A stretch of DNA of 64,000 nt from an uncultured Rhodospirillaceae bacterium. GTDB lineage: Bacteria > Pseudomonadota > Alphaproteobacteria > UBA9219. A program made the position numbers and the translations under genes. The notes beneath the pieces are model-generated. The model ran no database searches. It saw only the letters and a program-made list of their open reading frames with translations, and had not been told where the DNA came from. Of the stretch, positions 2,896 through 30,134 are shown one piece after another. Numbering within the stretch: the stretch's first letter is position 1; each line of letters starts with the position of its first letter. Where the stretch lies: the NCBI GenBank assembly GCA_964652235.1, contig CAZZDK010000009.1, positions 6,261-70,260 of the forward strand, written 5' to 3'.

Positions 2896-5800
2896 ATGCT
2901 GTTTTCACAGGATAAAGACAAAGAGAACAAAGCCCCCAAACGTTCGCTTTGGGGCACGTTGTTCAATCCCCGCTTCGGCGACGACATCAAGCCGCTCGCC
3001 GAGACCTCTCGTATGTTCGCCAATCTCGTCGCGATGGTTTTGGCCACCAACAATCTGTTTCCCAAAGATCACCCGGCGCTGCGCGACGCGACGGTGCGCC
3101 TTTCTCTCAGCGAGGTAATCGCCATCGCCTGGAGCCGCCTGTCTTTCACGAAAGAAGGCCTGCCCCAAATCGTCCTCTTCGCCGCCGTTATCGGCTGCAT
3201 GGTCTTTTCGGCGCTGTTCATTATCACGCTTATCTTCTCGTTCTTCATCACCCCCGCCCACGCAGCGGAAAGTTCGAGTATGTTTACGCCCGCCGATGGT
3301 GGCGCTGGCGATTGGGCTCAAAACTGGCTTAATTATATTTTTTCTGGTGAGCCTTATTCCTTGAATCTGGAGGAGTATTCCAATGTGCCAAAATCATGCG
3401 TTTGGCAATCAGCCCTTGGGAAAGCCCTTGGCTTCTACAGCGGAGGGATACTTGTCCTGGCCGGAATTATTCTCCTTTATCACTTATTTTCCATGGTTGC
3501 TGAAACGGCCCATTCCGGAAAGGTTATGGGCAATGCAAACCAAATCTGGGCGCCTATACGGCTTGTCGTGGCGATCGGTCTTTTGGTCCCCATTGGAAGC
3601 GCCTCAGCTGGAACCAATTGTTCTATATCGGGCCTGAATACCGGCCAATATCTCGTTGTGCAAGTGGCTAAGTGGGGTTCTGGACTAGCAAGCAATGTGT
3701 GGAAAGTCTTCACGGAAGCCGTTGGCGAAACAACGCCCCCTAGCGATTGTCAGAAGGGGAGCGGCTCTCCTTCCTGCATACAAGTCCCGGCCTCTGTAAA
3801 GAAACCAGCTGTCGGGATTATAAGCAATTATTTTTGCGCAGCTATGTATAATCGTTATATGTCTGAGCTTGGCCTCAAAGATTATTTTATCGAAGCGGCT
3901 ACTGATGTTTCTGCTGGGGATCATTTTTTTGGTCCCAAGTCTACTTTGGGACCAAACGGTTTTAATTTTACCGCAAGAAAATTGTGCGGGGGCTATTCCC
4001 TCCCCGCTCTCCCGGCAGACAGCCTCTATAGGTCAGTTTATGAGACCCAAAGGGCCGCGCTTGGTTCTTATCTCACCAAAGCCAAAGAAAAAGTTAATAC
4101 CTATGTTACCTATTATGTACCCGGCGGTGTCGTTCCTCACGACATCAACGAAGAAATAAAGGAATTGACGGAATCCTTTCGAGAGGACGCTGATAATAGA
4201 GTCCAATCGATCCTTCCTGCCGCCGACAAGCAGGCAAAAGAAATGGATCCTATGTTATCCAACAAGCTGGTAAAAGATGGTGGCTGGCTTATGGCGGGCG
4301 CATGGTTTAACTCTATTGCGAAAAATCAAGCAGATCGCTCGGCCAGTGTACAAAATGCCATGCCCCTGGTTTTAGAAAAGAGTTTGACGACACTAGTGGA
4401 GGAAAAATTTTCTTTCTCCAGAGAAAAAAAGAAGGGAATCTCTTCTCCAGAAGAGCGCACTTTAGCCGCGGTCAGAAAATTTGAGGAAGATATAGGTTTC
4501 TTAGGAGACGCTCCTGTTAAAGCCTCAACGGAAAAAACTGCCGAACAGGGAAAAAAATCTGACGATTCTGCGTGGGATACTCTCAAGCAGATAATAAAAT
4601 CTGCTAACCCGGCTCAGGGGCTCGTTAATCTTCTGGTAAAAATGTTAACTGACTATAATATCAGCAACACAAAGGGATTGGCCCTCAGATTCAACTCTTT
4701 TGCCAATCCTTTGGCTGAGGTGGCAGCCTTTGGCCACAGTCTTGTTAATCTATCTCTTGATCTTTTCGGTTTGGCTTTGGCTGCCTATGCGGTGGGTCTT
4801 TTGCTTTCAGGCGCTGGCCTCGTCGGGGGGCTTCTGGCAACGATAGCTTTGCCCTTCTTTACGGCCGGGGCCTTTCTTGGTTTTTTGCTTCCTCTTGTCC
4901 CCTTCTTCCGTTTCTTTTTTGGTGCCCTTACTTGGATTATAGGTCTTTTTGAGGCTGTCGTTGCCGTCCCCCTTTGGGCCCTCGCTCATATGAACCCGGA
5001 AGGAGCCGGTCTTCCAGGGGGAATGGCTAAAAGTGGCTATTTCTTTATCCTTAATACTATGCTCCGCCCAGTTTTGATGATTTTCGGATTAATTGCAGGC
5101 TATCTCCTCTTTCTTGTTTCCCTGAGTTTTCTCAACACCGCGTTCTCTATGGCGGCGCAAACAACGGGGAGCTTAAATGGGTCGACGCGCAACCTAGCGA
5201 CCCTTGTTTTTACCTTCATGTATTGTGGTACGGTTTACACTCTTGGCAACCAATGCTTTAAATCCATAGGCATGTTCCCCGAACACGCTTTGCGGTGGCT
5301 CGGCACAAGCGGTCACCAAGAGAAAATGGGCGACCCGTCCATGTCCCAACAGACAATGGGCGCTGTTGGAAGTTATGTTTTGGGACAAGGGATTGGTCAA
5401 CTCGGGGGAGCTGCTAAACAACTAGGGGACAACTTAAGGGGGAAAAAGAAGGCCGCCGCCGACCAAAGAGCCAGCGCCCTCGCGGATCAACGCCGTGATG
5501 GGATCGCCCGACAACGCCATGACGATAATATGCGCGCGCAGGGCATGAGGATGGTCACCGACAATGAAGGCAACCCTGTCTTGGGCGATGGCGGTGCGCC
5601 TACATACGAACGCGACCCCAATGCCATCCAGCAGGCTTCGGGCGGGGAGCAGATTCAGTCGGGCGGTGACGGCGGCGGACAGTCCATCGCTTCCAGCAGC
5701 CCTCCCCCGCCGCCTATACCGAAGGGCTTCCAGAAATCGGAAAGCAGCGATCTCGTCATTCCCTCGACCCTCGCTACGGAACAGAAGACCGCGAAAAACG

Positions 5801-5925
5801 AGCAACCGGCCGTGAAGGAGGAAGCCGCCGCCGCAGAGGCGAAGAGAAAGAACGACGAGCAAAGCGCAGAGAAGTCGCTTGCCGATATGCGGGCCGAACA
5901 CGCGCGGAAAAGCTGGGAGACTTAA
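2896..5925 (+). CDS. Large polytopic membrane protein with Cys-containing periplasmic domain and Gly/Pro/charged C-terminal tail; candidate DotA/TraY-like (or VirB6/TrbL-like) T4SS inner-membrane component
   Basis: 1009 aa. N-terminal TM segments, a ~380-aa AT-richer central soluble domain with paired cysteines, a cluster of 5-6 TM helices (res ~600-800), then a GGDGGG / PPPPPIP / KE-rich tail. Its length is close to what I recall for Legionella DotA (~1048 aa), and T4BSS-like genes lie 15 kb away. Confidence 0.55.
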   Translation: MLFSQDKDKENKAPKRSLWGTLFNPRFGDDIKPLAETSRMFANLVAMVLATNNLFPKDHPALRDATVRLSLSEVIAIAWSRLSFTKEGLPQIVLFAAVIGCMVFSALFIITLIFSFFITPAHAAESSSMFTPADGGAGDWAQNWLNYIFSGEPYSLNLEEYSNVPKSCVWQSALGKALGFYSGGILVLAGIILLYHLFSMVAETAHSGKVMGNANQIWAPIRLVVAIGLLVPIGSASAGTNCSISGLNTGQYLVVQVAKWGSGLASNVWKVFTEAVGETTPPSDCQKGSGSPSCIQVPASVKKPAVGIISNYFCAAMYNRYMSELGLKDYFIEAATDVSAGDHFFGPKSTLGPNGFNFTARKLCGGYSLPALPADSLYRSVYETQRAALGSYLTKAKEKVNTYVTYYVPGGVVPHDINEEIKELTESFREDADNRVQSILPAADKQAKEMDPMLSNKLVKDGGWLMAGAWFNSIAKNQADRSASVQNAMPLVLEKSLTTLVEEKFSFSREKKKGISSPEERTLAAVRKFEEDIGFLGDAPVKASTEKTAEQGKKSDDSAWDTLKQIIKSANPAQGLVNLLVKMLTDYNISNTKGLALRFNSFANPLAEVAAFGHSLVNLSLDLFGLALAAYAVGLLLSGAGLVGGLLATIALPFFTAGAFLGFLLPLVPFFRFFFGALTWIIGLFEAVVAVPLWALAHMNPEGAGLPGGMAKSGYFFILNTMLRPVLMIFGLIAGYLLFLVSLSFLNTAFSMAAQTTGSLNGSTRNLATLVFTFMYCGTVYTLGNQCFKSIGMFPEHALRWLGTSGHQEKMGDPSMSQQTMGAVGSYVLGQGIGQLGGAAKQLGDNLRGKKKAAADQRASALADQRRDGIARQRHDDNMRAQGMRMVTDNEGNPVLGDGGAPTYERDPNAIQQASGGEQIQSGGDGGGQSIASSSPPPPPIPKGFQKSESSDLVIPSTLATEQKTAKNEQPAVKEEAAAAEAKRKNDEQSAEKSLADMRAEHARKSWET

Positions 5926-9010: not shown

Positions 9011-9421
9011 ATGTCCAGCGTTTTTTCGACAGCGATTTCAGGCATGAACGCCGCCGTGGCGCAAATGCTGAACGCGGCGACAAACATAGTTAACGCTTCG
9101 TCAACAGGAAAATTGCCTGCCGCCGAAAACGAAAAAGCCACGTCTTTCGCGCCGCAAGACGTCGTTATCGCTTCGAACAACGAAGGCGATCATCATCTAG
9201 GCGTGACGGCGACGCGCGTGCCGCGCGAGCCTTCTTACTATCCGATGTATGATCCCCAAGCGCCGGACGCGAACGAGCAGGGCCTCGTCGCCGCGCCGAA
9301 CGTCGATATTGCTTCCGAAATCCTGGACGTGATGACGGCAAAGATCGCCTACGAAGCCAGCGCCAAGGTCATCGCGGCCGAAAAGAAAACGCAGGAAACC
9401 CTGCTCGACACGTTAACGTAA
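9011..9421 (+). CDS. flgC: Flagellar basal-body rod protein family (FlgC-like), orphan copy
   Basis: N-terminal rod motif SGMNAAVAQMLNAATNIVNASSTG and C-terminal PNVDIASEILDVMTAKIAYEASAKVI...TLLDTL match FlgB/FlgC family ends. 136 aa. No other flagellar genes in the window. Confidence 0.65.
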   Translation: MSSVFSTAISGMNAAVAQMLNAATNIVNASSTGKLPAAENEKATSFAPQDVVIASNNEGDHHLGVTATRVPREPSYYPMYDPQAPDANEQGLVAAPNVDIASEILDVMTAKIAYEASAKVIAAEKKTQETLLDTLT

Positions 9422-9491: not shown

Positions 9492-11372
9492 TTGGAGCCT
9501 TTCATGCCTTTGTCTCGCGCCGCCAAAATCCTCGTTTTTCTGTGCCTGGTGACGGCCTCCGGCGCGGCGCAGGCGCAGCTCGCGCCGACGCCGCAAAAAG
9601 CGCCGCGCACCCCCGTGCGCCAACAACAGCTCGCCATCGCCAAACAGCCTCCCCTTCCCGCCTCGCGCACGCTGACGGGCGAGGCCGTGATTCTCGACCC
9701 CGAACGCCTTAGAATCGACAGAATTGAGATGCGCCTGTTCGGCGTCGTGCCGCCGCTTTTGTCCGCCGCCTTCGGGCCGCAGGCGCGCGCCGCGCTGGAC
9801 CAACTGGCCAAGGAACCTGTGACGTGTCGTCTGCGCGACAGGGACCGGGACGGACGTCTTTTCGCTTCCTGCCAAAACGAAAGCGGCCTCGATTTCGGCG
9901 TCGAACTTTTGCGCCGGGGCCTGGCCGTCACCGCGCGCGGTTCGCTGCACGGCACAGAGCTCGCCTTGACCTACGTCGCGGCGGAAGAGGCGGCCAAGTC
10001 GCAGCGTCTCGGCCTTTGGTCGGTGCGCGCGCCCGAAGCCGCTTCCAAGAGCAGCATCGAGATGGCCGCGCAGAAAGCGGTTTCTCCCGCCGCGCCTGCT
10101 GTCGGCGAAACGCCTGCGCAACCGGAAGCCGCGCCACAGGAAACGAAAACCGCCGCGCCCGAACAGCCGTCGCCTGCCCCGCCCGAAACGGCCGTTGCCG
10201 TTTCCAGCGCGGATAAACCGGCGACAACGGCGGGCGAATCCCTTCTCTTCGTCCAGGACGAAGCTGGGGCTGCGCCCGAATTGGTTCTGCCGGAAACGGG
10301 TTTCGTCGAAAGGTACCAGCTTTTGCTCACGGGCCTCTCTTTTCTGCTGGCGGCTCTTATCGGCGCGAGCGGATTTGCCTGGGTCCGGCGACAGGAAAAA
10401 AGGGATTCGCTTCGGGCCATCGCCGCCGCGCTGCGCGGAGAAATCATGGCCATGCGGTCGGTTTGCCTGGCGCGTCTTTCCAAGATGGAAAAGGACGGCG
10501 ACGAAAAGACGACAAGCTGGCCGCGTTTGCGCTCTACGATTTTCCAGGCCTATGTCGGCGAATTAGGCCGTCTCGGCGCGGACCTGGCGAGGCAGATCGC
10601 CTCCATCTACGGCCAGTCCAGCGATTACGCTTCCTACTACGTCGGAGCGGGGGCGCGGCCTGAGGCGGCCTCAAAAAAACAGGCGCTTCAAACGCTTGTA
10701 CACCATATTGAAGATGTTGTGCCCCGCCTGGCGGGAATCGAGCGTGACGGCTTCGCGCCGAGGCCCCCTTCCGCTTCCCTTGCCCCCTCTCTTCTTGCGC
10801 GGGTTGCGCGACAGGGCGATGCGATTAAGTCCCTTCTAAAACCGTCTCTGCTGCCCCATGGCTGGCCCGGACGTCCCGCGCCGTTGCCGCCGCCGAAGGC
10901 GGCAGAGGCGCCGCAAGAAAGACCGTCCGCGAAAGAAAAAGCGGAAGAATCGCGCCCGCCGGAAAGCCCGGAGACAAAAGAAGAGCCTGTCGCGGAAAAA
11001 ACGGCGGAGGAAAGCCCGAAAGAGGCTCCGCCGCCGACAGACCAACCGACGATCAAACAGGCGCGGCCCGGCAAAAAAGCGGCTCCCGCGTCGAAACGGG
11101 CCGCTAAAACCGAAAAGACGCGCCAGCCGCCACAGAAAAGGTACGCTTCGCTCAACCCCGAAAAAATTGCCGAGGTCACCGCCCGGCTTGGTCGAATGAA
11201 AGACTTTCTGGCCGGACAATGGGACCGCCTAAAACCCGAAACGAAAGACTTTTATAAAGACCTGCTGCCGGAATACGCTCACCTGACGGAAGAGGAGCTG
11301 GAGGCGCTGGCTTATTTCGAGGAAAATCCCTACCGGGAAGAGGAGGAAGAGGCCCCCCGGAAAACGGGTTAA
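9492..11372 (+). CDS. Signal-peptide/TM-anchored protein with staphylococcal-nuclease (SNase/thermonuclease)-like periplasmic domain, Pro/Ala/Glu-rich linker and lysine/glutamate-rich cytoplasmic tail
   Basis: Signal peptide ILVFLCLVTASGAAQAQ. SNase-like block (RLFGVVPP ... AEEAAKSQRLGLWS). Single TM LLLTGLSFLLAALIGASGFAWV mid-protein. Low-complexity KE/P-rich C-terminus. Confidence 0.6.
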   Translation: MEPFMPLSRAAKILVFLCLVTASGAAQAQLAPTPQKAPRTPVRQQQLAIAKQPPLPASRTLTGEAVILDPERLRIDRIEMRLFGVVPPLLSAAFGPQARAALDQLAKEPVTCRLRDRDRDGRLFASCQNESGLDFGVELLRRGLAVTARGSLHGTELALTYVAAEEAAKSQRLGLWSVRAPEAASKSSIEMAAQKAVSPAAPAVGETPAQPEAAPQETKTAAPEQPSPAPPETAVAVSSADKPATTAGESLLFVQDEAGAAPELVLPETGFVERYQLLLTGLSFLLAALIGASGFAWVRRQEKRDSLRAIAAALRGEIMAMRSVCLARLSKMEKDGDEKTTSWPRLRSTIFQAYVGELGRLGADLARQIASIYGQSSDYASYYVGAGARPEAASKKQALQTLVHHIEDVVPRLAGIERDGFAPRPPSASLAPSLLARVARQGDAIKSLLKPSLLPHGWPGRPAPLPPPKAAEAPQERPSAKEKAEESRPPESPETKEEPVAEKTAEESPKEAPPPTDQPTIKQARPGKKAAPASKRAAKTEKTRQPPQKRYASLNPEKIAEVTARLGRMKDFLAGQWDRLKPETKDFYKDLLPEYAHLTEEELEALAYFEENPYREEEEEAPRKTG

Positions 11373-15080: not shown

Positions 15081-18863
<3,783 letters not shown>

Positions 18864-18864
<1 letters not shown>

Positions 18865-19013
18865 TTCATAAGCCCTCAAGCGCCGGGCGCGAACCTGGCG
18901 GTTCGCTTGGCTTACGCGCGCATTGGCGCGCGGGCCCTCAACGGGCCATCGGCGCCCATGCCCTATGGGCGCCGAGACAACAAGCCCTATTCATAAGCCC
19001 TCAAGCGTCGGGC
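18864..19013. repeat. 25-bp imperfect direct repeat (attcataagccctcaagcgYcgggc at 18864-18888 and 18989-19013) flanking four GC-rich stem-loops (18889-18973)
   Basis: Seen directly. The second copy encodes the C-terminus of the glycosyltransferase (..RLRAYE*); the first copy abuts the gyrB stop. Stems: gcgaacc/ggttcgc, cgcgcgc/gcgcgcg, ggccc/gggcc, ggcgcccat/atgggcgcc. Confidence 0.7.
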
Positions 19014-20048
19014 AATTTTTTTGTCCTCGATCAACTTTTCATAAAGCGCGATCATCTGCTCGGTTACGGCTTTGCGCGTATAGCCTTTCTGATAGGATTC
19101 GCGACCGCCTGCCACCAGCCGTTCGCGCAAAGCCTTGTCGCCGACGGCGCGGGAAAGCGCCTGCGCCAGCGACTTTTCATCGTCGACGGGGACAAGCAGC
19201 CCGTCTTTTTCGTGCGTCACGTGGCCCGCCGGGCCCGCGCTGGCGGCAGCGACAAGAGGAACGCCCGCCGCCCAAGCCTCCAAAATTACTGTCCCGAACG
19301 GCTCATAACGCGAAGGCAAAACGCACACATCCGCCGCGCGCAAAAGCGCGCCGCGATCCGTCCGCCAACCCAGAAACCGCACCCGCGATTCGAGACCGAG
19401 CGTTCGGGTCAGTTCTTCAAGTTCGCCGCGCAAAGGGCCTTCGCCCGCGAGCCAGACATAAAGGTCCGGCAAAAGTTTCGCGGCCTTCAATAGCGTGTCC
19501 AATCCCTTTTTGGGGTGAAGCCGCGAAAGAGCCAACGCGACAGGGGCGTCCGCAGGGGTGTCCAAGCTCGCCCTGTCCACAGGCGATTCGTCCCGCACAT
19601 CGGGAAAAGTCGGAACGTAAAACGCTTTTTCTTCCGCGACGCCGTTTTTGACCATATGCGCCACAATGTCGCGCGTCACGCCGACGAAGTGCGAACAATG
19701 TTTGAACTTGCGCGGATCGTAATAGCCGCCGAACCAACCGAGAACCGGCCCCTTTTTCCAGGCCGGGACAAGGCTGGCGGCGCGGCGCATCCAGCAATGG
19801 ATCAGGTCCGGGCTTTCCCGCTCGATCAGTTTTTTAAGCCGCCATCTTTGCAAAGGCCGGAAAGGAAAGGACAGAACTTCCGGCGCCGTCCGCACCCCCG
19901 ACGCAAGAAGCTCGCCATAGCGCGGCGCGGCGGCGGGATACACCGCGCATTGGTCGATCCCCGCCGCATGGAGGCTGAGCATCATGTCGGTGGCGTAGGT
20001 CTCCGCCCCGCCGAGGCCCTTGCCCGCCATGATGTGAAGAACGCGCAT
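18987..20048 (-). CDS. Glycosyltransferase family 4 (GT-B, WaaG/LpcC-like)
   Basis: EPFGTVILEAWAAGVPLVA (E-x7-E motif), N-terminal GKGLGGAE. Its start overlaps the stop of the upstream coupling-protein gene (TAATG). Confidence 0.8.
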   Translation of the reverse strand: MRVLHIMAGKGLGGAETYATDMMLSLHAAGIDQCAVYPAAAPRYGELLASGVRTAPEVLSFPFRPLQRWRLKKLIERESPDLIHCWMRRAASLVPAWKKGPVLGWFGGYYDPRKFKHCSHFVGVTRDIVAHMVKNGVAEEKAFYVPTFPDVRDESPVDRASLDTPADAPVALALSRLHPKKGLDTLLKAAKLLPDLYVWLAGEGPLRGELEELTRTLGLESRVRFLGWRTDRGALLRAADVCVLPSRYEPFGTVILEAWAAGVPLVAAASAGPAGHVTHEKDGLLVPVDDEKSLAQALSRAVGDKALRERLVAGGRESYQKGYTRKAVTEQMIALYEKLIEDKKIARRLRAYE

Positions 20049-22405
20049 TACTCCGCCGCTTTTTCTTTCCCGCCGAGGCCCTTATTCAGCTTGCCCGCCA
20101 TGTTTTCGACCAGGGCAGCCATGTCGGCGGGAAGCTGGAGCTTGGTCACATCCGGCCCTTCTTCTTCCTCGCGCACGGACGGCACGACGCGCGTATCGAG
20201 ATCGGACGGAACGAAGCCGCGCGGCGCGGACGTCTTGCGCTCGTAAAGCGGCGGCACGTCCAAATCTTCGAAACTGGCGCGCTTTTCTTCCGGTTCTTTG
20301 TCTTCTTCCCACGAAACGGCAAGCGGCTTGGCCACTTTGCCTGTCGCCGCCGTCTGGGACGGCGCTGCCGTTTCGGTTCGCTGGCGCGGTTTTTCTGCCG
20401 GAAGCTTCGCGGCGGCGGCGACCAGCGCCATGCCCTCTTCCATGGAAGAAAGGCCGCCGCCCCGAACAAGCGCCGCCATTTCCATCAGCGCCGAGACCTC
20501 GCCCGAAGGCGCCGCCTCGCCCGCCGCAGCCGCCGTCCAGTCGGGGTCCTTGAGCCGGGCCGCGACTTCGCTGATCGCCCGCTCGCGCGAAACGGTAAGC
20601 GTCGTCGTGGCGGGCACCGGCAAAAGCCGATGGACGCGCAGGGCCGAAACCTTGTCCGGCGCCGCATAGAACATCCGCACGCGCGCGATGAACTCGGCAA
20701 AGAGCATATGCACCTCGCCTTCGCGCTGACCGCGCAACTGGTCGTAGTGCGCGCGAACGCGAACCTGCGTGCCGCCCGTTCCCAGATTGTCGTAGAAAGG
20801 CTTGTTCATGAACAAGCTGGAAATCGTGTCGGTCTTGGCCGCCATGCCGTTCGATTCATAAACGAAGTTATCGCCGACGTGTTCCGAGAAGAATTTCTTC
20901 GTATCGCCCGGGTCCTCGAGCTTGCCGAAAATTTTCAGGTTGCAGTTGGCCAGGATGGATTGAGCCTCCTGCTTGACGCGCTTTTCCATCGACGGCAAGT
21001 CCTGCGCCGCGAAAATAAGAGAGAAGCCGAGCGAACGGGCCTGCGCGGCCATGACGGCCATGCCCTGCGCCGTGTAGTAACCGACTTCGTCAAACACCGT
21101 CATGAAGGAGGAGGAAGATCGCGTCTGTTTGCTGCCGATGGCGTTTTCCCAGCTTCCCTCCACCGTGTTGCCGAGCGTCGCGCCCATCATGCCTTTCAGG
21201 CTGGCGGCCACGATTTTGCCGAGGTTGGCGGCTTCGTCGCCGGATTTCTCCAGCGAGGGGATCAGGCCGACCAGAATACGCCGGTTCAAAACCGTGTCCA
21301 AAACGTCCACGTCCGCAAGCTGCGCCTTGAAGATGTAGCCGTATTCGTCGCCGAGCGATTGCAGCGAGCGCGTGAACTGCATGGACAGATAACCGTGCTG
21401 TTGCCGCGCGACTTGCAGATCGTACATGGGCTGATCGGGCGCGGGCGGACGCTCGTTGCCTTCGTCGTCGAAGGCCGCGTCGATATAGCCCGGCAGCGTG
21501 TTCAGGTAGCCTTGCAACGCCTTGATGACGCGTTCCGGCAGCGTCGCGTCGCGCGACAGGCGAATGATGGCAGGAAGCTCGATATATTCGCGCAAAACGC
21601 CGACGTCGAGCAAAAGGCCGCCCTTGTCGCGCTTCCAGGTCAAGGCGGGCATGAGGGCGCCGAGCAAAGCGACGGCGCGTTCTTTCCACATCGCGTTGTC
21701 GCCGCCCGCGTCAGGCATCAGGTTCGTCACCATGTTGGTGAGATAGGAAGCCGAGCCGTTCGAAAACGGGTTCATCGTGTTCGAGACCGCGCCGTTGTCC
21801 GAGTTCGCAGTCATGTAGTTCAAAACCAAAAGGTCATCGTCGCGCCCGAAGCGGCGCGCCAGCGCGAATAGAGACGCCCACAGATCCGTGTCGGCCTTGC
21901 CGTCCACATAGACGAAGCCCGACCCCCAGGTCAGGGCATTGGTCACAATGGCTTTCAGTCCTTCCGTTTTGCCGGACCCTGTGGTTCCGATAAAAAGAAT
22001 ATGCGTGCGGGCGTCGGTGTTGGTCAGCCAAATCTCGCGCCCCATGTCGGGGTGGCCCGCCTCGTCCAGATTGCCCAGATACAAAATGCCCTCGGACTTG
22101 CCCGGCCCCGTCCTGCCCGGCGCTGGGTTATGGGGGTCCGGCAACGGCGCCGCGTATTTCGGCATCTTGAACGGCAGCTCGATGGGCTGCTTGAAAAACC
22201 AACGAGCATAAAGAACGAGCAGAAACAAAACCAGATCGGAAAGAAGCCCGGCTTCCGGCAGGGCGAAAACCAAGACTCCGACGCCGAGCGTGGCGGCGCA
22301 GAAAGGTTCCGTCTGGCTCCAGAAATCCTTGATGCGCACGGAGGCCGGCCGCGCGTCGCGCAGCAAGTCGCGAAGATTCAGCGCGTGTTTCTTAAGAATG
22401 GTCAT
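20048..22405 (-). CDS. dotL: Type IV secretion coupling ATPase, DotL/IcmO (TrbC of IncI)-like
   Basis: 785 aa. Two N-terminal TM helices, Walker A FIGTTGSGKTEGLK, long acidic/Ala-rich C-terminal extension. The size is about what I recall for DotL (~783 aa). It is adjacent to DotM-like and DotO-like genes. Strong SD AAGGAGGG. Confidence 0.6.
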   Translation of the reverse strand: MTILKKHALNLRDLLRDARPASVRIKDFWSQTEPFCAATLGVGVLVFALPEAGLLSDLVLFLLVLYARWFFKQPIELPFKMPKYAAPLPDPHNPAPGRTGPGKSEGILYLGNLDEAGHPDMGREIWLTNTDARTHILFIGTTGSGKTEGLKAIVTNALTWGSGFVYVDGKADTDLWASLFALARRFGRDDDLLVLNYMTANSDNGAVSNTMNPFSNGSASYLTNMVTNLMPDAGGDNAMWKERAVALLGALMPALTWKRDKGGLLLDVGVLREYIELPAIIRLSRDATLPERVIKALQGYLNTLPGYIDAAFDDEGNERPPAPDQPMYDLQVARQQHGYLSMQFTRSLQSLGDEYGYIFKAQLADVDVLDTVLNRRILVGLIPSLEKSGDEAANLGKIVAASLKGMMGATLGNTVEGSWENAIGSKQTRSSSSFMTVFDEVGYYTAQGMAVMAAQARSLGFSLIFAAQDLPSMEKRVKQEAQSILANCNLKIFGKLEDPGDTKKFFSEHVGDNFVYESNGMAAKTDTISSLFMNKPFYDNLGTGGTQVRVRAHYDQLRGQREGEVHMLFAEFIARVRMFYAAPDKVSALRVHRLLPVPATTTLTVSRERAISEVAARLKDPDWTAAAAGEAAPSGEVSALMEMAALVRGGGLSSMEEGMALVAAAAKLPAEKPRQRTETAAPSQTAATGKVAKPLAVSWEEDKEPEEKRASFEDLDVPPLYERKTSAPRGFVPSDLDTRVVPSVREEEEGPDVTKLQLPADMAALVENMAGKLNKGLGGKEKAAE

Positions 22406-22454
22406 GGCCTTCGCCCTCCTTTTCCCGCGGCTTTTGCAAAGCGGGATTTTTTCT

Positions 22455-23012
22455 TCATTCCGCTGGCGGCTCCAGCACGTCGTCGGCGGACATCGGCACG
22501 CCGTTTCGAATTTCCTTCGGCGCCAAGGGCGTCGGAACGACGGGCGCAGACGACAAACTTCCCGCTTTCGTAGGAATCGTCGAGGCGCTCTTTTGCGCCT
22601 GCGCGCGCAAAAGCGCCAATTGCTCTTCCGTAATCGGCGCGGAAAAGAACGTCATAACGAAAAACCCGATAAAAAGGACGCCCAAAAACATCAGGAGGCG
22701 CCGCCACCAATTGTTCTTAAAAGGCGACGCGTCCCGCAAAAGGGTTTTTTGAGTCGCCGCATAGGCCTCCTCGGCCTGGCGCCTTTCGTCGAAATGGGCG
22801 ATGGGCGTAAAGACGCCTTGCGGCAGCAAAAGGCCCAACTCCCACTCGCCGTCCTTTTCGCGCAACGTCACGGCGTGGCTGCCCATCTTTTCGAGATCAA
22901 ACTGCCAGACGACAGGGGGGGTGCTCTCCTTGTAAGACGCCACAAGACAGGGCGTCTGATTCCGCCGCACCAACTTGGCCTGAACGCCCGCTTTTCCCGA
23001 AAAACAAAACAT
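22455..23012 (-). CDS. Hypothetical single-TM membrane protein encoded between the DotM-like and DotL-like genes
   Basis: 185 aa. SD AGGGAG 8 nt upstream. One central TM (WWRRLLMFLGVLFIGFFVMTFF). No recognisable motif. Confidence 0.5.
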   Translation of the reverse strand: MFCFSGKAGVQAKLVRRNQTPCLVASYKESTPPVVWQFDLEKMGSHAVTLREKDGEWELGLLLPQGVFTPIAHFDERRQAEEAYAATQKTLLRDASPFKNNWWRRLLMFLGVLFIGFFVMTFFSAPITEEQLALLRAQAQKSASTIPTKAGSLSSAPVVPTPLAPKEIRNGVPMSADDVLEPPAE

Positions 23013-23028
23013 AGCCTATCTCCCTTTC

Positions 23029-24261
23029 CTATGACGCACGCACGTCCTTGCCCGCTCCCGCGAACGGCGGAAGCTCCGGCTGATTGGCCGCAAAATACTG
23101 GTTAAGCGCCACGATCGCCGTCTCAAGCCTTGGAATGGGCAAGGCCTTTCCCGCCGCTTCTTCGGCCATATAATGCGCCATCGCGCCCGCGCCTTCCATG
23201 TGAAAGGAGCGACGCCCCAGATTGTTCAGCGCGTACCACAAAGTCCGATCCGTGCCGCGCAGCCACAAAAACTGAGCGGACGCCAGCACGCCGCCCATAA
23301 ATCTGGCCCAACGCAAAACGCCAAGAAGGGCGGTCGTCCGGTAAGCGTGCTTGGCCGCTATCTCAAGCGCCTTGCCGCCGATTTCCGGGTCTTTGAGAAT
23401 TTTCTGAATCTCGGCCATGATCTCCGCCGTTGGGCGAAAACCCCCTGTTGCCGTCCAGCAGGTGGAAAGCTTGCCCAAAAACTCGTCGCTTTCTTCGCGT
23501 TTTTGCACGCCTTTAAGCGCAAACGCCGCCAGAAGGCCAAGCACATAGGGGGGCAGTCCTTTATAACCGGCCCAGCGCGGACCCAGTTGCGCGAGAAAAG
23601 CCTGTCGCGTGCGGTCCTTGTTGGGAACGCCCCCCTCGACGCCGATTTGATGGGCGGAAACCCACTCTTCGGGCGAAAGAGCTTCGGCGAACAAAGGCAG
23701 CTTTTCCGGGATCAACGAACCGGGTATCCGCGCGCTGTGCTTGGACGGGTTGAAATCCACGATCGGCTGAATCACGGGCCATATCTTCGCCTGGACCTTG
23801 ATAAAGCTTTCCAGATTGTAGCGCGTTTTGAAAGCGTCCTTCTTGAAAACGAAAAGAGCCTTATAAATGACATAGACGGCCACACCCAGAACGATCCACC
23901 GCCAATAATCCATAATATGCCTACTCACGGCGCCGACGCTGGTAGCCGTCAGCGTGTAATATTGCATGGCTTCCGCCGCGGGAAGAGGTCTCAACGTGTT
24001 AACGCCAAAGCAGTTTGCAGCGGCCAGAACCGTGCTATCCGCCGGAACGGTTTTCTCAAGCGGCACGATCCAAAGCCAATGAAAACAAGCCCGCGCTTTT
24101 TGGTCGAAGGGCATAAGCGGCACGATTTCGGCAAGCCGAAGGTACCGCATAAACTCAAGCAGTTGCGGCTCGAAGAAAAACCAAATCAGCCATCCGATCA
24201 AAAGGATAGCGCAGATAAAGATCAGCAGAATCCATGTCGGATCGTCGGTGTTGCCTGCCAT
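23029..24261 (-). CDS. dotM: Inner-membrane T4SS coupling-complex protein, DotM/IcmP (TrbA of IncI)-like
   Basis: 410 aa. N-terminal TM helices followed by ~250-aa alpha-helical cytoplasmic domain, the size and topology I recall for DotM. Position immediately upstream of the DotL-like gene. Confidence 0.5.
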   Translation of the reverse strand: MAGNTDDPTWILLIFICAILLIGWLIWFFFEPQLLEFMRYLRLAEIVPLMPFDQKARACFHWLWIVPLEKTVPADSTVLAAANCFGVNTLRPLPAAEAMQYYTLTATSVGAVSRHIMDYWRWIVLGVAVYVIYKALFVFKKDAFKTRYNLESFIKVQAKIWPVIQPIVDFNPSKHSARIPGSLIPEKLPLFAEALSPEEWVSAHQIGVEGGVPNKDRTRQAFLAQLGPRWAGYKGLPPYVLGLLAAFALKGVQKREESDEFLGKLSTCWTATGGFRPTAEIMAEIQKILKDPEIGGKALEIAAKHAYRTTALLGVLRWARFMGGVLASAQFLWLRGTDRTLWYALNNLGRRSFHMEGAGAMAHYMAEEAAGKALPIPRLETAIVALNQYFAANQPELPPFAGAGKDVRAS

Positions 24262-24390
24262 TTTCGCCCGTTCCTGCTATAGCCCCTAGAGCCCGCTTGG
24301 TTTCGATTCCAAAACGGTCGGGCATTATACGCCTAACAAAGCAGATTTGCCTTACCTTTTTACTTGCCGCAATCTCTTTCTTCGCCGCCG

Positions 24391-27381
24391 TTAACTTTTT
24401 TCCTCGACATCCCGCTGCAAGGACCGGGCATAGGCGATCATTTCTTTGGCCAGCTCGGAAATGACGACGCTGGTCGCGCCGGATTCGATCTCGCCGCGCT
24501 CGGTTCTTTGGACCACCCGGCGACGAATTTCCTGCCGCGCCGAACCGGCCGGGAAGAAATGGGCCAGAATGGACCGCCCTCTGGCAGCGCCAAGTTCTTC
24601 ATAAAGCTTGGTTCTGAGGTCCACATCTTCGGTGGAGGTCGATAAAGCCCAAAGCTCCACGGGGCCGAGCGTGTTAACCAAATGCTGCTCATATCGGCCT
24701 TCATTGGTGCTGAGAAGCAGCAAAACGGGCGCGCCGCTGGGCCGGGGGCCTGTCAAACGGTACCGCATGACCCACCGGGCGGTGTCGGACAGGCCGAAAC
24801 GATCCGCCGTTTCGCTGATGGCCCGGTCGGAAACCGCCGTGCCGCAAATCCACACGCCCGTCGCCAGGTCGATCATGTCGGCGCTGAAATCGTCCAAAAG
24901 CTGCGAGGCCAGAACGATCTGCACGCCCCATTTGCGGCCTTCGCGCACGTCGCGCACGACCTGCGCCCGAACGGCGTTCGTCTTGCTCGTGCGGTGAAAC
25001 TCGTCAAAGCACAAACGCTTCGGGCTTTCCCGAATGTCCTTAAGCCGCCCCTCGTGATAGGGCCTGTATTTTTCGGGCATATGGCGCAGGGAATCCTGCC
25101 CCAGCCACCAGGAGCGGACCAAAACGTGCCGCGCAAGCATATACATGATGGCCGTCTGGCGGTCCGCGATGTCGTCGCCCTGGGGCGCGACGTCCTGCAA
25201 ATCGACGGCGGCGATGTGCGTCTCGCCGATATCGAAGCGCGTCACCGAGGCGAGGATGGGGAACTCGCGCACGGCGGAAGCCAACATACGCTCAAAGGCA
25301 TGAATGACGGACTCGGCCGAAGCGCCGATGGCCGTTTCTTCGAGAAGAGCCCGTATCTGGGGCCTGCGTGCCGCCGTCACCGCGTCCACGAGCGTGGGCA
25401 CCGCGTGGCGCTGGGCCAGCGTGCATTCATGATAGGCGCCCGCATCGTACAGCGCGTCCACGACGTCCCACCAATAAGGATCGACGGGCAGGTGGATGTT
25501 GTAGGTCTTGATCGCCTCATCCACGTCCGGCTCGATGTTCTGCAGATAGGGCCGCGGCTCGGTGTTCGCGCCGCTGTCGTCGCGCCAACGGTACATCTCG
25601 TCCACGCAAAGGCCGACGAGCTGCGTCATGCCGTCATAGGGAACCTTCTGCCCCGGCGAGGTGCAAAGAAGGGTCAAAAGCTCCGTGAGATAGGAGCGCT
25701 CTTCAGGCAAGGGGTAGCGGCAGCCGAGCTGCGTATCGAACGGATTGACGGCATATTCAGGGGTCATGCGCAATTTGAAATGCATGGCCTCGTGGCGACG
25801 GTTAAGAGGCAATGCATCGCGGATCAGAGAGATCAATCCGGACGAAGACGGCCCAATGTCGAGAATGGCGATATAGGGCAGGCGCGCGTTGCCCGCCGAA
25901 AGAACGGTGCCGAGATTGAGGGCGTTCATCAAGACGGATTTGCCCGCGCCCGGCTGCGCGAAAATAAGATCAAACCACGTCGTCGTAAGCGAACTGCCCA
26001 TCTGATAGGGCCAGATGCGCCCGTCGGCGGTGCGGAAAATAACGGGGCCTTCCGCGAAAGGCGAAGAGGCCCTTTGCCAGGGCATAAGCTTCATGACCTC
26101 CTGAAACGGCGCGATGGCAGGCGGCGCGGTTGACGAGCAAGCGATGCCGAGCGAAGCGGACAAAGCGGTCTCGAGAGGATCGCCTCCTGCCGAAGTCGCC
26201 TGGCAATAGCCCCAGGCCTCGACCGCCTGCGTCAGGGCGGCCAAACGCGTTTCCATCAGCCTGCGATCCCGCGCCGGGGCGTAGGTCGAAAGCGAAATGC
26301 GCAGGCGCACGACCGGTTCGCTTTGCGCCAGTTCCTGCAGCGCTTTGAGCGATTCCCGTATCTGGCGATTCACTTCGTTCGTGAAAGCCAAAATCGCCGC
26401 CGTAAAGGCACGGAACATCGCACCCTGCGCGCCCGCGCTTTCGATCAGGAACGAAACGTGGAAAGGAATGTCGCCGTCGATGAGCCGCGCGAGAAGCTGC
26501 GGAAAGGGCGTCGGATCGGCGGGCGCCAGCGTCACGTCCACGCCGCCCCAAAGCAAATCGCCGATCCGCACGATGGTCGGCGAAACCGTTTCCGCATCCG
26601 CCACGCAAAGCTGCCTGCGCAGCGGCGGCCAGAGAACTTCCGAAAGATCCGTTTTCCGGTGCGGCGCGCGCGGCAAAAGGGGATCGCCGGGAACGTTCGC
26701 GCGCCAATCTTTGTTGGCAAGATAGGGGTAGAGGCTGGCCCGCACCGCGGCAAGCGCGCTGTGCACCGATTCCAAAGAAGCCCGGATCGCGACTTCTTCC
26801 AACGCCGCCGTCACCGCCGCGACGAAGCTCTTGTGCCGCGTGCGTAGAGGCTCCAGCGTCAGTTTGGGATTCTGGGCGTCGCTCGCGACGACCCACTTCT
26901 GTTCGCCGCGCAAACGGATCGCTTCCTTCAGGTCGCTTTTGTTCACGGCGCCGGGGCGCGTCCAGAGAACGAAGTAAACCTCTTCGTGCGCCAGATAGCG
27001 GGTCAGGTGTCGCTTTCGTTCTTCAAGCAAATCGCCCAGATCGAGGTCGAGAGCCCGCGCGGCGCTTCGGTTCGATTGCATGGCCCTCGCAAGGTCTTCG
27101 CCCGCCATGGCGGGGTCGCGCATGAAATAAACCTGCATGGCGTAGCCGGGACGGTCGAACCGCGCGCCGAGCTTCATCGTCGCCTGGTCCACGATCCAGC
27201 GATATTCCGCGTCACCGATGATTTGCCGTGCGCCGTGAATGCGAATAAAGGACACCATCGAACCGTCCGCGGCCACAAGCGTCGTATCGTCTTCGGCGGT
27301 CTCCAGCTGAATAAAGGATTCGATGGGCTGCTTGGCGGCCAGAAGAATGGCGGCCAGAACGTTGTCCAGAAGGTTCAGCAT
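24391..27381 (-). CDS. dotO: VirB4-family T4SS ATPase, DotO/IcmB (TraU of IncI)-like; the 27381 start (MLNLLDN) is preferred to the ORF-track start at 27522
   Basis: ~1000 aa, Walker A FAQPGAGKSVLMNAL mid-protein. The size matches what I recall for DotO (~1009 aa) rather than the shorter VirB4/TrbE (~800-850 aa). Adjacent to DotM/DotL-like genes. Confidence 0.55.
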   Translation of the reverse strand: MLNLLDNVLAAILLAAKQPIESFIQLETAEDDTTLVAADGSMVSFIRIHGARQIIGDAEYRWIVDQATMKLGARFDRPGYAMQVYFMRDPAMAGEDLARAMQSNRSAARALDLDLGDLLEERKRHLTRYLAHEEVYFVLWTRPGAVNKSDLKEAIRLRGEQKWVVASDAQNPKLTLEPLRTRHKSFVAAVTAALEEVAIRASLESVHSALAAVRASLYPYLANKDWRANVPGDPLLPRAPHRKTDLSEVLWPPLRRQLCVADAETVSPTIVRIGDLLWGGVDVTLAPADPTPFPQLLARLIDGDIPFHVSFLIESAGAQGAMFRAFTAAILAFTNEVNRQIRESLKALQELAQSEPVVRLRISLSTYAPARDRRLMETRLAALTQAVEAWGYCQATSAGGDPLETALSASLGIACSSTAPPAIAPFQEVMKLMPWQRASSPFAEGPVIFRTADGRIWPYQMGSSLTTTWFDLIFAQPGAGKSVLMNALNLGTVLSAGNARLPYIAILDIGPSSSGLISLIRDALPLNRRHEAMHFKLRMTPEYAVNPFDTQLGCRYPLPEERSYLTELLTLLCTSPGQKVPYDGMTQLVGLCVDEMYRWRDDSGANTEPRPYLQNIEPDVDEAIKTYNIHLPVDPYWWDVVDALYDAGAYHECTLAQRHAVPTLVDAVTAARRPQIRALLEETAIGASAESVIHAFERMLASAVREFPILASVTRFDIGETHIAAVDLQDVAPQGDDIADRQTAIMYMLARHVLVRSWWLGQDSLRHMPEKYRPYHEGRLKDIRESPKRLCFDEFHRTSKTNAVRAQVVRDVREGRKWGVQIVLASQLLDDFSADMIDLATGVWICGTAVSDRAISETADRFGLSDTARWVMRYRLTGPRPSGAPVLLLLSTNEGRYEQHLVNTLGPVELWALSTSTEDVDLRTKLYEELGAARGRSILAHFFPAGSARQEIRRRVVQRTERGEIESGATSVVISELAKEMIAYARSLQRDVEEKS

Positions 27382-27596
27382 GGACGAAAGACCTCCCGGC
27401 GCGAAGGGGGAGACGCAGGGACGGAGGAGAGACCGATTGGAGCCAAACGCCGAAACGCCATGCGGGACACATACCTTGCAAACGGACAACGACAAACGTC
27501 TGCCCAAGGAAGCCTCGGACATCCTTGCTGTTTTAACGGCAAGATTATGAACAATTAACTAACGCAAAAGATTTAGAAAAGCCCTTTCGTTTTCCC

Positions 27597-29189
27597 TTGA
27601 CGCTTTTGCGGGCTTCCCGCTTACTAATTCCCGTTTTCCGGGAAAAGGGGCAAATTTTGGTCGCACGTATAGGCACTTTTGCTTTTGAGGGCACGTCCGT
27701 CCTGCCGATCGACGTTCAGGTTCAAATCTCCTCCGGTCTCGTCGTCTTCAATGTCGTCGGATTGCCGGATAAGGCCGTCGCCGAAAGCCGCGAGCGCGTG
27801 CGCGGCGCCCTTCACGCCCTGGGGCTGTCTCTTCCGGCCAAAAGGATCACCGTTAACCTGGCGCCCGCCGACGTTCTTAAAGAAGGCAGTCACTTTGACC
27901 TTCCCATCGCGCTGGCGATTTTGGCGGCGATGGAGGTCTTGCCGAAAGAAGAAATCCTTCTCTATGCGGCTTTGGGAGAATTGGGGCTGGACGGCGCCCT
28001 TGCGCCCGTCGCGGGCACCTTGCCCGCCGCTGTTTCGGCAAACGAACGAAACTGCGGCCTTATTTGTCCGCTGGCGAACGGGGGCGAGGCCGTTTGGGCG
28101 AGCGAGTCTCTGGACGTGCTGGCCGCTCCTTCTCTTCTTAGCCTTATTAATCACTTCAAGGGGATTCAGGTCCTGCCCCGCCCGATGCCCCGCCTTCAGG
28201 AACAAACCGGTCCGGCCTTTGCCGACCTGCGCGACATCAAGGGCCAGGAAACGGCCAAACGCGCGTTGGAGGTCGTGGCGGCGGGAGGGCACAACCTGCT
28301 GATGATCGGCCCGCCCGGCGCAGGCAAGAGTATGCTGGCCGCGCGGCTTCCCGGCCTTTTGCCGCCCCTTGCCCCGGACGAAGCGCTTGAGGTCTCGATG
28401 ATCCATTCTCTGGCGGGCCTTTTAGAGGACGGCAAACTTTTGCGTCAAAGACCGTTCCGCGACCCCCACCATTCGGCCACGCTCGCCGCTCTGATCGGCG
28501 GAGGCACGCGCGCCAAACCCGGCGAGGTTTCCCTGGCCCATAACGGCGTCTTGTTTTTGGACGAATTGCCGGAGTTCCAGCGCGCGACGCTGGAAGCCCT
28601 GCGCCAGCCGCTCGAGACCGGTCGCGCCGTTGTCTCTCGCGCCAATCACCATGTTTCCTATCCGGCGCGCATTCAGCTTGTCGCGGCCATGAATCCCTGC
28701 CGGTGCGGCCATTTGGCCGATCCTTCCCTCGCCTGCGGGCGGGCGCCCAAATGCGCCGCCGATTATCAATCCCGCATTTCGGGCCCTCTGTTCGACCGTA
28801 TTGATTGCCATGTGGACGTGCCCGCCGTCAGCGCAAGTGATCTTTCCCTCCCGCCGCCAGCCGAAGATTCCGCCGCCGTCGCGGCCCGCGTGGCGCGTGC
28901 GCGCGCCGTTCAGACCGAACGTTACCGCGCCTTGGCGAAGACGAGCGAAAAACCCGTCCGCACCAACGCCGAAGCGGACGGCGAGCTTTTGGAAGCCGTC
29001 GCCCCTCTGGGCGAAACGGCGCGATCCCTTTTGTCGCAAGCGGCGGAAAAAATGAAATTGTCGGCCCGCGGCTATCACCGCGTTTTGCGCGTCGCGCGCA
29101 CGCTTGCCGATCTGGCGGAAAGCGAAACGGTGGAAAAACTTCACGTGGCCGAAGCGTTAAGCTACCGCCGCCTTTCCTTCGGGCGGTGA
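27597..29189 (+). CDS. comM: YifB/ComM-family Mg-chelatase-like AAA+ ATPase
   Basis: N-terminal ChlI-like domain ([11 protein letters not shown]), Walker [15 protein letters not shown]-terminal ComM domain. True start may be an internal TTG/GTG. Confidence 0.85.
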
Positions 29190-30134
29190 CGATTCGCCGC
29201 TCATTTGCGCGGCGGCGGCTCGGATTTCCTCGGTCGTCACGAGCATATGCGAAATGCCCGCCGTGACGGCGCTGGTCGCCGAGGTCGTCTCCTGCGCGCT
29301 GCGGGCTATTTCCTGCGTCGCCGCGTTTTCCTGATCCAACGCCGATTTGATGGCGACGGTAATCGCGTTGATTTGTCCGATCGTTTCTTCGATTCCCTTG
29401 ACCTGATCTTTCACGTTTTGCGAGGCGACGCGCACATCGTTGATCTGTTTTTCGATCTGCTCCGTCGCCTCGGCGGTCTGTCGGGCCAGCGACTTGACTT
29501 CTCCCGCGACGACGGAAAAGCCCTTGCCGTGTTCGCCCGCCCGCGCGGCCTCGATGGTGGCGTTGAGGGCAAGCAGATTGGTGCGCTCGGCGATCATGCG
29601 TATAAGGCCCACGATCGAAGCGATTTCGTCGCTGCGGGCCGCCAGGGTCGCGACGGCTTCGTCGGCGCCTTTAGCGTTCTTTACCGCGCCGCCCGCGATG
29701 CTCGTCGCCTCGTCCGCTTGGCGACCGATTTCGTGAATGGCGCTGTTCATTTCCTCAATGGCGCTGGCGATGCTGGTCGCGCTTTCCGTCGCGCGCGCCG
29801 CCGAAGAGGTGGAGGCTGTGGCGCGGCGCTGATGGTCTTCCGCGAGAGCTTGAAGTTTTTTGGCCTGCGCCGCTAGCTTTTGCCAGACGTCTTCACGGTC
29901 CTGAGGGCCTGTCTTATCCGGCTCTTTCGTTTCTTCGGGCCGGACGGCGGGTTCGCGGCCCAAAGGCCTCGATAGGACCGCGCTCACCGCCAGGCTGCCT
30001 AAAACGAGAAAGGCCGCCAAAAAAGCGACGGCCCTGCCGTCCGGCGCGACGCGCCAGGCCCAAAGGCCCAAGGGCGCAACAGCCCCCAGCAGAAAAGAAG
30101 CGGTGATCGCCTTTCTTATCGAAGGATCCGTCAT
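29157..30134 (-). CDS. Methyl-accepting chemotaxis protein (short, two N-terminal TM, no ligand-binding domain)
   Basis: MCP signalling-domain motifs [32 protein letters not shown]. Confidence 0.8.

Follow-up and report, generated by a model that had tools for sequence, protein, structure and literature searches.

A probable energy and substrate-recruitment arm of a dispersed Dot/Icm-like type IVB secretion system between gyrB and comM in a Micavibrio-related alphaproteobacterium

We analyzed a 64,000-nucleotide stretch of the genome of an uncultured Rhodospirillaceae bacterium (contig CAZZDK010000009.1 of assembly GCA_964652235.1; here called the window), in which homologues of Dot/Icm type IVB secretion proteins are encoded by a block of five closely packed open reading frames (ORFs) on the minus strand, flanked by gyrB (about 16411-18864, plus strand) and comM (27597-29189, plus strand). 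From the comM side, these are icmB/dotO (24391..27381), for a predicted TraU/DotO-type VirB4-family ATPase of 996 amino acids (aa); dotM/icmP (23029..24261), for a coupling-complex membrane protein of 410 aa; orf185 (22455..23012), for a conserved small membrane protein of 185 aa that belongs to no named family; dotL/icmO (20048..22405), for a 785-aa type IVB coupling ATPase homologous to TrbC; and a gene for a GT4 glycosyltransferase of 353 aa (18987..20048), with Pfam matches to Glycos_transf_1 (1.3e-35) and Glyco_transf_4. The original prediction for this region, made without database searches, had described four co-oriented genes between gyrB and comM. Those four ORFs exist, and the 785-aa protein has the features ascribed to it (two transmembrane [TM] segments, the motif GTTGSGKT and an acidic tail), but the range holds five genes, the glycosyltransferase gene having gone uncounted. 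Because the gaps between the first four genes are short (129, 16 and 49 nucleotides [nt]) and the ATG of the glycosyltransferase gene overlaps the stop codon of dotL by 1 base, the block looks like a single operon.

The longest ORF for icmB (24391-27522) would encode 1043 aa, and position 27522 had been given as the upper limit of the region. An ATG at 27381 is preceded by a ribosome-binding site (GGGAGG) and gives the 996-aa version, which matches the lengths of IcmB homologues (990-1001 aa), and position 27381 is almost certainly the true start. The divergent icmB-comM intergenic region (27382..27596) is presumed from the gene arrangement to contain the operon promoter; scans of the locus for consensus sigma-70 promoters and for terminators yielded nothing above chance.

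The large ATPase, foreseen as a VirB4-like protein of about 1000 aa with the Walker A motif AQPGAGKS, does have that motif (read here as FAQPGAGKS) and a Walker B motif, CFDEFH. In a tblastn search of plasmids it aligned over its full length with annotated IncI1 TraU (27.6% identity, 94% coverage, E about 1e-82), and its homologues at NCBI and JGI, 70-89% identical, carry the name IcmB. Nearly all window ORFs of at least 150 aa, and the main ORFs in the gaps, were compared with Pfam and/or NCBIfam models. In Pfam and among PDB sequences IcmB found no match, and against the VirB4 and TraC models of Pfam and NCBIfam nothing was significant, with one marginal TraC-F-type match (E 0.01). To judge from these comparisons, the large ATPase is a TraU/DotO(IcmB)-type member of the VirB4 family.

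The coupling ATPase matches Legionella IcmO(DotL) (PDB 6sz9_A) with an E value of 1.9e-128 and 433 bits, residues 5-622 aligning with residues 7-616. Among NCBIfam models the best was TrbC_conju, at 353 bits, which is below its equivalog cutoff of 800; the next type IV coupling protein (T4CP) model scored 73 bits, 280 less. The protein has a Walker A motif (GTTGSGKT), a Walker B motif (VFDE), two N-terminal hydrophobic segments and an acidic tail, and it gave weak matches in the P-loop region to TrwB_AAD_bind (37 bits) and T4SS-DNA_transf (31 bits, residues 123-252). It can be assigned on these grounds to the DotL/TrbC-type coupling proteins. The alignment with 6sz9_A ends at residue 622, and the remaining tail (about 160 aa, residues about 623-785) could not be aligned with the IcmS/IcmW/LvgA-binding tail of Legionella DotL. 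Two motifs in it, LYE..PRGF.P.DLD..VVP and DVTK..LP...MA.KLNKGLGG, are conserved within the lineage. No IcmS or IcmW match was found among the window ORFs scanned, and Legionellales-type IcmS/IcmW(/LvgA) adaptors with a matching DotL tail appear to be lacking from the window.

The 410-aa protein matches Pfam DotM_C (PF23127) with 163 bits (cutoff 27; E 1e-47), the whole of the NCBIfam profile DotM_IcmP_IVB with 170.5 bits (below the equivalog cutoff of 230) and Legionella DotM (6sz9_B) with an E value of 1.2e-26, as would be expected of a DotM/TrbA-type partner of the coupling protein. Arg196 and Arg197 of Legionella DotM are aligned with Pro and Asn here and other basic residues lie close by, so this comparison is uninformative. 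Thus, the original assignments to DotO, DotM and DotL (or TraU, TrbA and TrbC) were borne out by profile or structure-sequence searches and by the TraU match. Their better fit than type IVA VirB4/VirD4 also held, there being no significant VirB4/TraC match and only P-loop-local generic matches for the coupling protein.

For the 185-aa product of the gene between dotM and dotL, neither Pfam nor NCBIfam nor the PDB sequences yielded a match. Its family numbers 681 representatives at 50% identity, and the gene lies between dotM and dotL in every locus showing that interval. This setting is kept even on a distant soil or root metagenome contig (L046, 835-1374; related loci are given L numbers here): the weakest of the best 150 representatives listed (P0402, on a root-metagenome contig) has neighbors 56% and 60% identical to the window DotM and DotL. 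AlphaFold modeling, done on database homologues, gave a predicted local distance difference test (pLDDT) score of 81, rising above 90 in the N-terminal domain. In the model, residues 10-93 form six β-strands and a helix in a PH-like arrangement, followed by a TM helix (98-123); the C-terminal part consists of a variable Pro/Ala-rich tail and then an invariant GVPxxADDVL motif.

The glycosyltransferase gene lies directly downstream of dotL in six loci in which that side of dotL is visible (L001, L004, L006, L010, L028 and L029), with a gap of 2 nt in L010. In L001 it is followed by lipopolysaccharide (LPS)-type genes, encoding GT25 and Wzy_C (O-antigen-ligase-like) proteins. It may be an LPS gene merely carried along with the operon, or there may be a true functional link. 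We also considered a defense-system reading and rejected it, since generic GT4 models match the glycosyltransferase more strongly than the GT4-conflict model of Pfam does.

A further component lies on the same contig, 13 kb from the icmB-dotL operon. There, dotA (2896..5925, plus strand) would encode a polytopic inner-membrane protein of 1009 aa, which matches NCBIfam TIGR04346 (DotA_TraY) with an E value of 4.9e-79 and 266.6 bits (cutoff 100) over profile positions 24-656 of 656, and NF033886 (T4SS_DotA) with 179 bits, below the cutoff of that model; Pfam did not recognize it. By these matches it belongs to the DotA/TraY family. Its composition is atypical: GC content is 0.51 and GC content at third codon positions (GC3) 0.54, whereas the other window genes measured, icmB and dotL included, have GC3 values of 0.64-0.78. 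It stands as a single-gene low-GC patch between znuA and tsaD. The low GC content could mean that dotA was recently replaced through transfer from a relative of lower GC content, or that the gene is under unusual constraints.

The original prediction had placed the rest of the machine out of view. This was so for DotB, DotC, DotD, DotG and DotH, and also for DotI, none of which was found among the scanned window ORFs, but not for dotA. No T2SSE-family gene (the DotB/TraJ class) was present in the window or in the flanks retrieved. Neither the scanned window ORFs nor those related loci with available gene and Pfam tables showed a relaxase, integrase or tRNA gene. The context therefore appears to be chromosomal, relaxase-less and non-mobile, as in the pT4SSi type of TXSScan.

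IcmB homologues 70-89% identical to that of the window occur in hundreds of metagenome contigs and metagenome-assembled genomes (MAGs) labeled "Alphaproteobacteria bacterium," "Rhodospirillaceae bacterium" or "Bdellovibrionales bacterium"; a scan of a genome collection added "Micavibrio sp." and a "Micavibrio aeruginosavorus" MAG. The labels are mixed because NCBI files Micavibrio under Bdellovibrionales, and they suggest that the host lineage is very probably Micavibrio related, in the order Micavibrionales.

In 12 of the related loci (L001, L009, L011, L012, L022, L026, L031-L034, L039 and L041), icmB-dotM-orf-dotL(-GT4) forms the downstream end of a longer cluster. Its order is a 150-aa gene, DotI, a DotI paralogue, DotH, DotG (with a TrbI domain), a coiled-coil protein that matches DotF faintly, a protein resembling TraQ/DotE, a small membrane protein, a protein of 230 aa and then icmB. 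The 230-aa family directly upstream of icmB matched Legionella DotN/IcmJ (PDB 5x42/6sz9) in profile comparison with an E value of 1e-30 and keeps the CxxC...CxxC pattern; DotN/IcmJ is not in the window and is known here from these relatives. A 430-aa protein of the dotI-dotN part gave only coiled-coil noise in profile comparison with the PDB. In L003, a 342-kb contig, the order is kept through orf185 and dotL does not adjoin. As dotL must lie elsewhere in that genome, the lineage has seen the cluster broken in more than one place. After the small gene in L003 (14805-17129) come a protein of 249-273 aa, a homologue of which comes after the small gene in L022 as well, and a protein of 491 aa that has a Peptidase_S74 domain (intramolecular chaperone or tail-fiber-like).

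In the closest relatives, with IcmB 85-89% identical, icmB is instead preceded by divergent comM, as in the window. These are L004 (GCA_053526855.1), L028 (GCA_053528475.1), L029 (GCA_053527515.1) and the JGI contigs L006/L007; L029 reproduces the full arrangement gyrB / GT4-dotL-orf-dotM-icmB / comM, and L010 is another icmB-first arrangement. These loci and the window thus have the icmB-dotL arm only. Conversely, L013, L014, L015, L017, L020 and L044 have the dotI-dotN arm only, with no icmB for 4-6 kb; in the first five its neighbors are, for example, gltX and groEL, or tyrS follows it, and in L044 it is followed by proB. A dotA homologue (TIGR04346, 210 bits) is found in L020, about 4 kb past the dotI-dotN block; between the two (16879-18168) is a gene for an ATPase weakly similar to the anti-phage PtuA/MADS3 models (E about 1e-9). 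L013, L015, L017 and L020, together with the truncated L016 and L018, form a clade in DotI and DotN comparisons, and the depth of this clade resembles that of the window's IcmB clade.

The metagenome that yielded L006, with an icmB-dotL arm, also holds contigs with dotI-dotN arms, and one of these, L036, correlates with L006 at 0.96 in tetranucleotide composition, more closely than any other contig of different origin. The genome-collection scan, which used two short peptide patterns from a DotG alignment, found 16 loci, none of them in the assemblies with a split icmB (JAIVSC01, JAIVPI01, JAIVRA01 and CAYMGM01). Among the loci examined, the two arms were not placed on contigs of one named assembly.

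The inheritance of the operon appears to follow that of the chromosome. Window GyrB is 72-86% identical across the same MAG lineages in which IcmB is 70-89% identical, and several gyrB and icmB homologues lie on shared contigs. Between the window and L004/L006, the proportion of nonsynonymous differences (pN) is 0.10 for icmB, 0.15 for dotL and 0.21-0.23 for dotM, with proportions of synonymous differences (pS) of 0.68-0.81; over all comparisons of the three genes pN ranges from 0.10 to 0.26, and the nonsynonymous substitution rate (dN) of IcmB is lower than that of ComM. The DotL core is nearly invariant across split and contiguous loci. As predicted, the GC content is ameliorated, the GC and GC3 (0.67-0.78) of the four operon genes matching those of housekeeping genes. 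We concluded from these comparisons that the gene set is old, vertically inherited and, as far as constraint can tell, functional; it looks like neither a recent island nor a decaying remnant.

The window otherwise contains housekeeping genes, among them znuA/znuC-like genes, tsaD, gpsA, gatB, gyrB, comM, pepN, a suf operon, hemN, rph and mltA, with parAB, rsmG (gidB), mnmG (gidA) and mnmE at 50-57 kb. The locus had been described as next to the origin, and this last group of genes is indeed present. However, cumulative GC skew declines steadily over all 64 kb with no sign change and no turning point; the replication origin is therefore taken to lie outside the window, despite parAB, rsmG, mnmG, mnmE and gyrB. 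A small gene for a FlgC-like flagellar rod protein (9011-9421, plus strand; E 2e-18, below the model cutoff), together with methyl-accepting chemotaxis protein (MCP) genes (29157-30134 and in related loci), suggests a motile, chemotactic organism. A 626-aa protein encoded at 9492-11372 (plus strand), a possible secreted nuclease, has as its only recognizable part a domain of the staphylococcal-nuclease type (E 6e-10, residues 91-177); some 450 aa of it are unmatched. Finally, a 681-aa, very hydrophobic polytopic membrane protein without a Pfam/NCBIfam match is encoded at 57297-59342 (plus strand) and accounts for a local excess of T over A (AT skew down to -0.38); by eye only, its N-terminal half resembles ArnT/PMT-type large membrane glycosyltransferases.

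Taken together, these results make it likely, in our judgment, that the locus is the cytoplasmic and inner-membrane arm, for energy and substrate recruitment, of a Dot/Icm-like type IVB effector translocator that is dispersed, relaxase-less and vertically inherited in Micavibrio-related alphaproteobacteria; the system is real and probably working. Given that there is neither a relaxase nor a mobile-element context here, the system most likely delivers protein effectors, and not conjugative DNA, into another cell. By analogy with the Legionella system (PDB 6SZ9 and established Dot/Icm biology), hexamers of DotL, anchored by their two TM helices, would pair with DotM and with DotN, encoded at the other locus, to bind protein substrates, and the conserved motifs of the DotL tail may recruit adaptors or substrates. 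DotO would dock below the inner-membrane complex and, together with a DotB not seen here, power translocation; DotA would form part of the inner-membrane channel, and a DotC/D/H/G complex encoded elsewhere would span the envelope. The 185-aa PH-like protein may be a lineage-specific accessory subunit of the coupling complex. The separation of the icmB-dotL arm, which now lies between comM and gyrB, from the dotI-dotN arm is probably due to an ancestral rearrangement in the window's clade.

Several points weigh against this interpretation. DotB, DotC, DotD, IcmT and IcmS/W were not found in any sequence examined, and the completeness of the machine in this organism is something that we infer. 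The link between the arms within one genome consists of dotA in the window and of co-occurrence and tetranucleotide similarity in one metagenome only. The ratios for icmB (pN/pS about 0.14, dN/dS about 0.03-0.06) are rough, dS being saturated. In addition, the 2011 genome paper on cultured Micavibrio aeruginosavorus ARL-13 reported neither a type III nor a type IV system of secretion (PMC3189940), and the system may not be universal in the group.

A more specific and decidedly tentative version of the effector translocator is that it injects effectors into Gram-negative bacterial prey, serving predation and not an attack on eukaryotic hosts, with orf185 and the divergent DotL tail as a substrate-recruitment module that replaces IcmS/IcmW. 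It is suggested by the alliance of the lineage with the epibiotic predator Micavibrio and by a machine as conserved as GyrB, and we regard it as unlikely on present evidence.

The original prediction had left undecided whether the operon was one arm of a split system or a domesticated remnant. According to the second possibility, the outer-membrane machine was lost and DotO-DotM-DotL (with DotA) was kept for another inner-membrane function, such as export of protein or DNA to the periplasm, or uptake. The 64-kb window indeed holds no envelope-complex gene, the two arms have not been placed in one named assembly, and strong purifying selection would equally fit a co-opted function. However, related genomes have dotI-dotN arms without icmB, in a clade about as deep as the icmB clade of the window; one metagenome holds both an icmB-dotL contig and a dotI-dotN contig whose tetranucleotide signature matches it; and no sequence change separates the split from the contiguous versions, the DotL core being nearly invariant in both. 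The genes are intact and under purifying selection, and other mating-pair-formation type I (MPF-I) components exist. We therefore favor a dispersed but retained system, on the evidence for two arms and the presence of dotA in the window, and consider a remnant improbable.

More improbable still is a chromosomally integrated IncI-like (MPF-I) conjugative element that moves DNA. All four large proteins have IncI counterparts (TraU, TrbA, TrbC and TraY), the order dotM-x-dotL mirrors trbA-trbB-trbC, and IcmB matched 3783 plasmid records by tblastn, mostly conjugative plasmids. Identity to plasmid TraU, though, is about 28%, compared with 70-89% among chromosomal relatives, and IcmB divergence tracks that of GyrB. 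The scanned window ORFs and related loci showed no relaxase, integrase, tRNA or repeat boundary; the flanks are housekeeping genes with conserved synteny (gyrB, comM, gltX and groEL), and the composition is native. DotL resembles its Legionella counterpart (433 bits) more closely than it does the TrbC model (353 bits, far below the cutoff of 800). A reading as an integrative and conjugative element or a plasmid remnant was likewise considered and rejected. There is next to no chance that a type IVA (VirB/D4) or F-type system was misread as type IVB, since the weak matches pointing that way (TrwB_AAD_bind and T4SS-DNA_transf for the coupling protein, TraC-F-type for the ATPase) cover the P-loop region only, whereas the full-length matches are to DotL, DotM, TraU and DotA/TraY, DotM and DotA have no type IVA counterpart, and neither VirB4/TraC nor VirD4/TraD membership was found. 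The outcomes named beforehand as fatal to the original prediction did not arise: the top matches are not type IVA or F-type, the genes are intact and strongly constrained, dotA lies in the window, and dotI, dotH, dotG and dotN are present in relatives.

Work on Dot/Icm systems has been almost confined to Legionellales, in which eukaryotic cells are the targets of effector injection. The system described here would provide a second, independent setting, a core-genome version that evolves slowly, in an alphaproteobacterial lineage that is widespread, uncultured and flagellated and is allied to a bacterial predator. This setting helps to ask which parts of the coupling complex are universal, as DotL, DotM and DotN appear to be, and which are lineage inventions, such as IcmS/W in Legionellales or orf185 here; it also raises the question of what such bacteria attack. 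For annotation, the lesson is that a "partial" type IVB secretion locus can be a piece of a dispersed system and that Pfam alone misses DotO and DotA.

The occurrence of such a system in an alphaproteobacterium had first been called unusual, which was an overstatement. Using TXSScan, Needham et al. (2022) listed a relaxase-less type I type IV secretion system ("pT4SSi") in seven marine Micavibrionales, with no further analysis (PMC9418006). It is the same kind of system, very probably in the same order; the listing does not extend to the order of the genes, their split arrangement, their conservation or the orf185 family. Beyond PMC9418006 and PMC3189940, a literature search found no paper linking Micavibrio with Dot/Icm terms, and the dotM-orf185-dotL triplet, the conserved dotL-GT4 linkage and the recurrent splitting of the cluster seem to be undescribed so far.

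Among plasmids, the best IcmB match was the Methylorubrum extorquens AM1 megaplasmid NC_012811.1, alphaproteobacterial like the window and of MOB-suite type MPF_I (44% identity over the full length; DotL homologue, 39%). It is far more distant than the chromosomal relatives, is a megaplasmid of 70% GC and has other components unrecognizable by tblastn. In its region 446834-489791 (L027), which is unannotated in PLSDB in a record marked "non-mobilizable," the IcmB and DotL homologues lie about 17 kb apart.

With the IncI1 (R64-type) MPF-I system, the window shares counterparts of the four large proteins in TraU, TrbA, TrbC and TraY, and in both a small gene lies between the DotM and DotL homologues. 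R64 TrbB is a thioredoxin-fold disulfide isomerase; orf185 has no match to a named family. The two differ further in that identity to TraU is about 28%, that no relaxase, oriT or plasmid context is found here and that inheritance here appears to be vertical and chromosomal.

In Legionella, the genes run icmM-L-K-E-G-C-D-J-B, and the dotI-to-icmB order of the window's relatives agrees with this. Also shared with Legionella Dot/Icm are the homologues in the window of DotL (residues 5-622), DotM (cytoplasmic domain and membrane part), DotO and DotA, the presence of DotN, DotI, DotH and DotG in relatives, and a chromosomal location with no relaxase nearby. In contrast to Legionella, no IcmS, IcmW, IcmQ/R or DotK was detected in the sequences scanned here, and the DotL tail cannot be aligned with the IcmSW/LvgA-binding tail. 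The host does not belong to Legionellales but is an alphaproteobacterium that has genes for flagella and chemotaxis, and dotM and dotL are separated by the gene for an additional, conserved PH-like membrane protein of 185 aa. Finally, dotM-orf185-dotL follows icmB here and does not lie upstream of the dotK, dotJ and dotI genes, and in the window's clade the system is divided over at least three loci.

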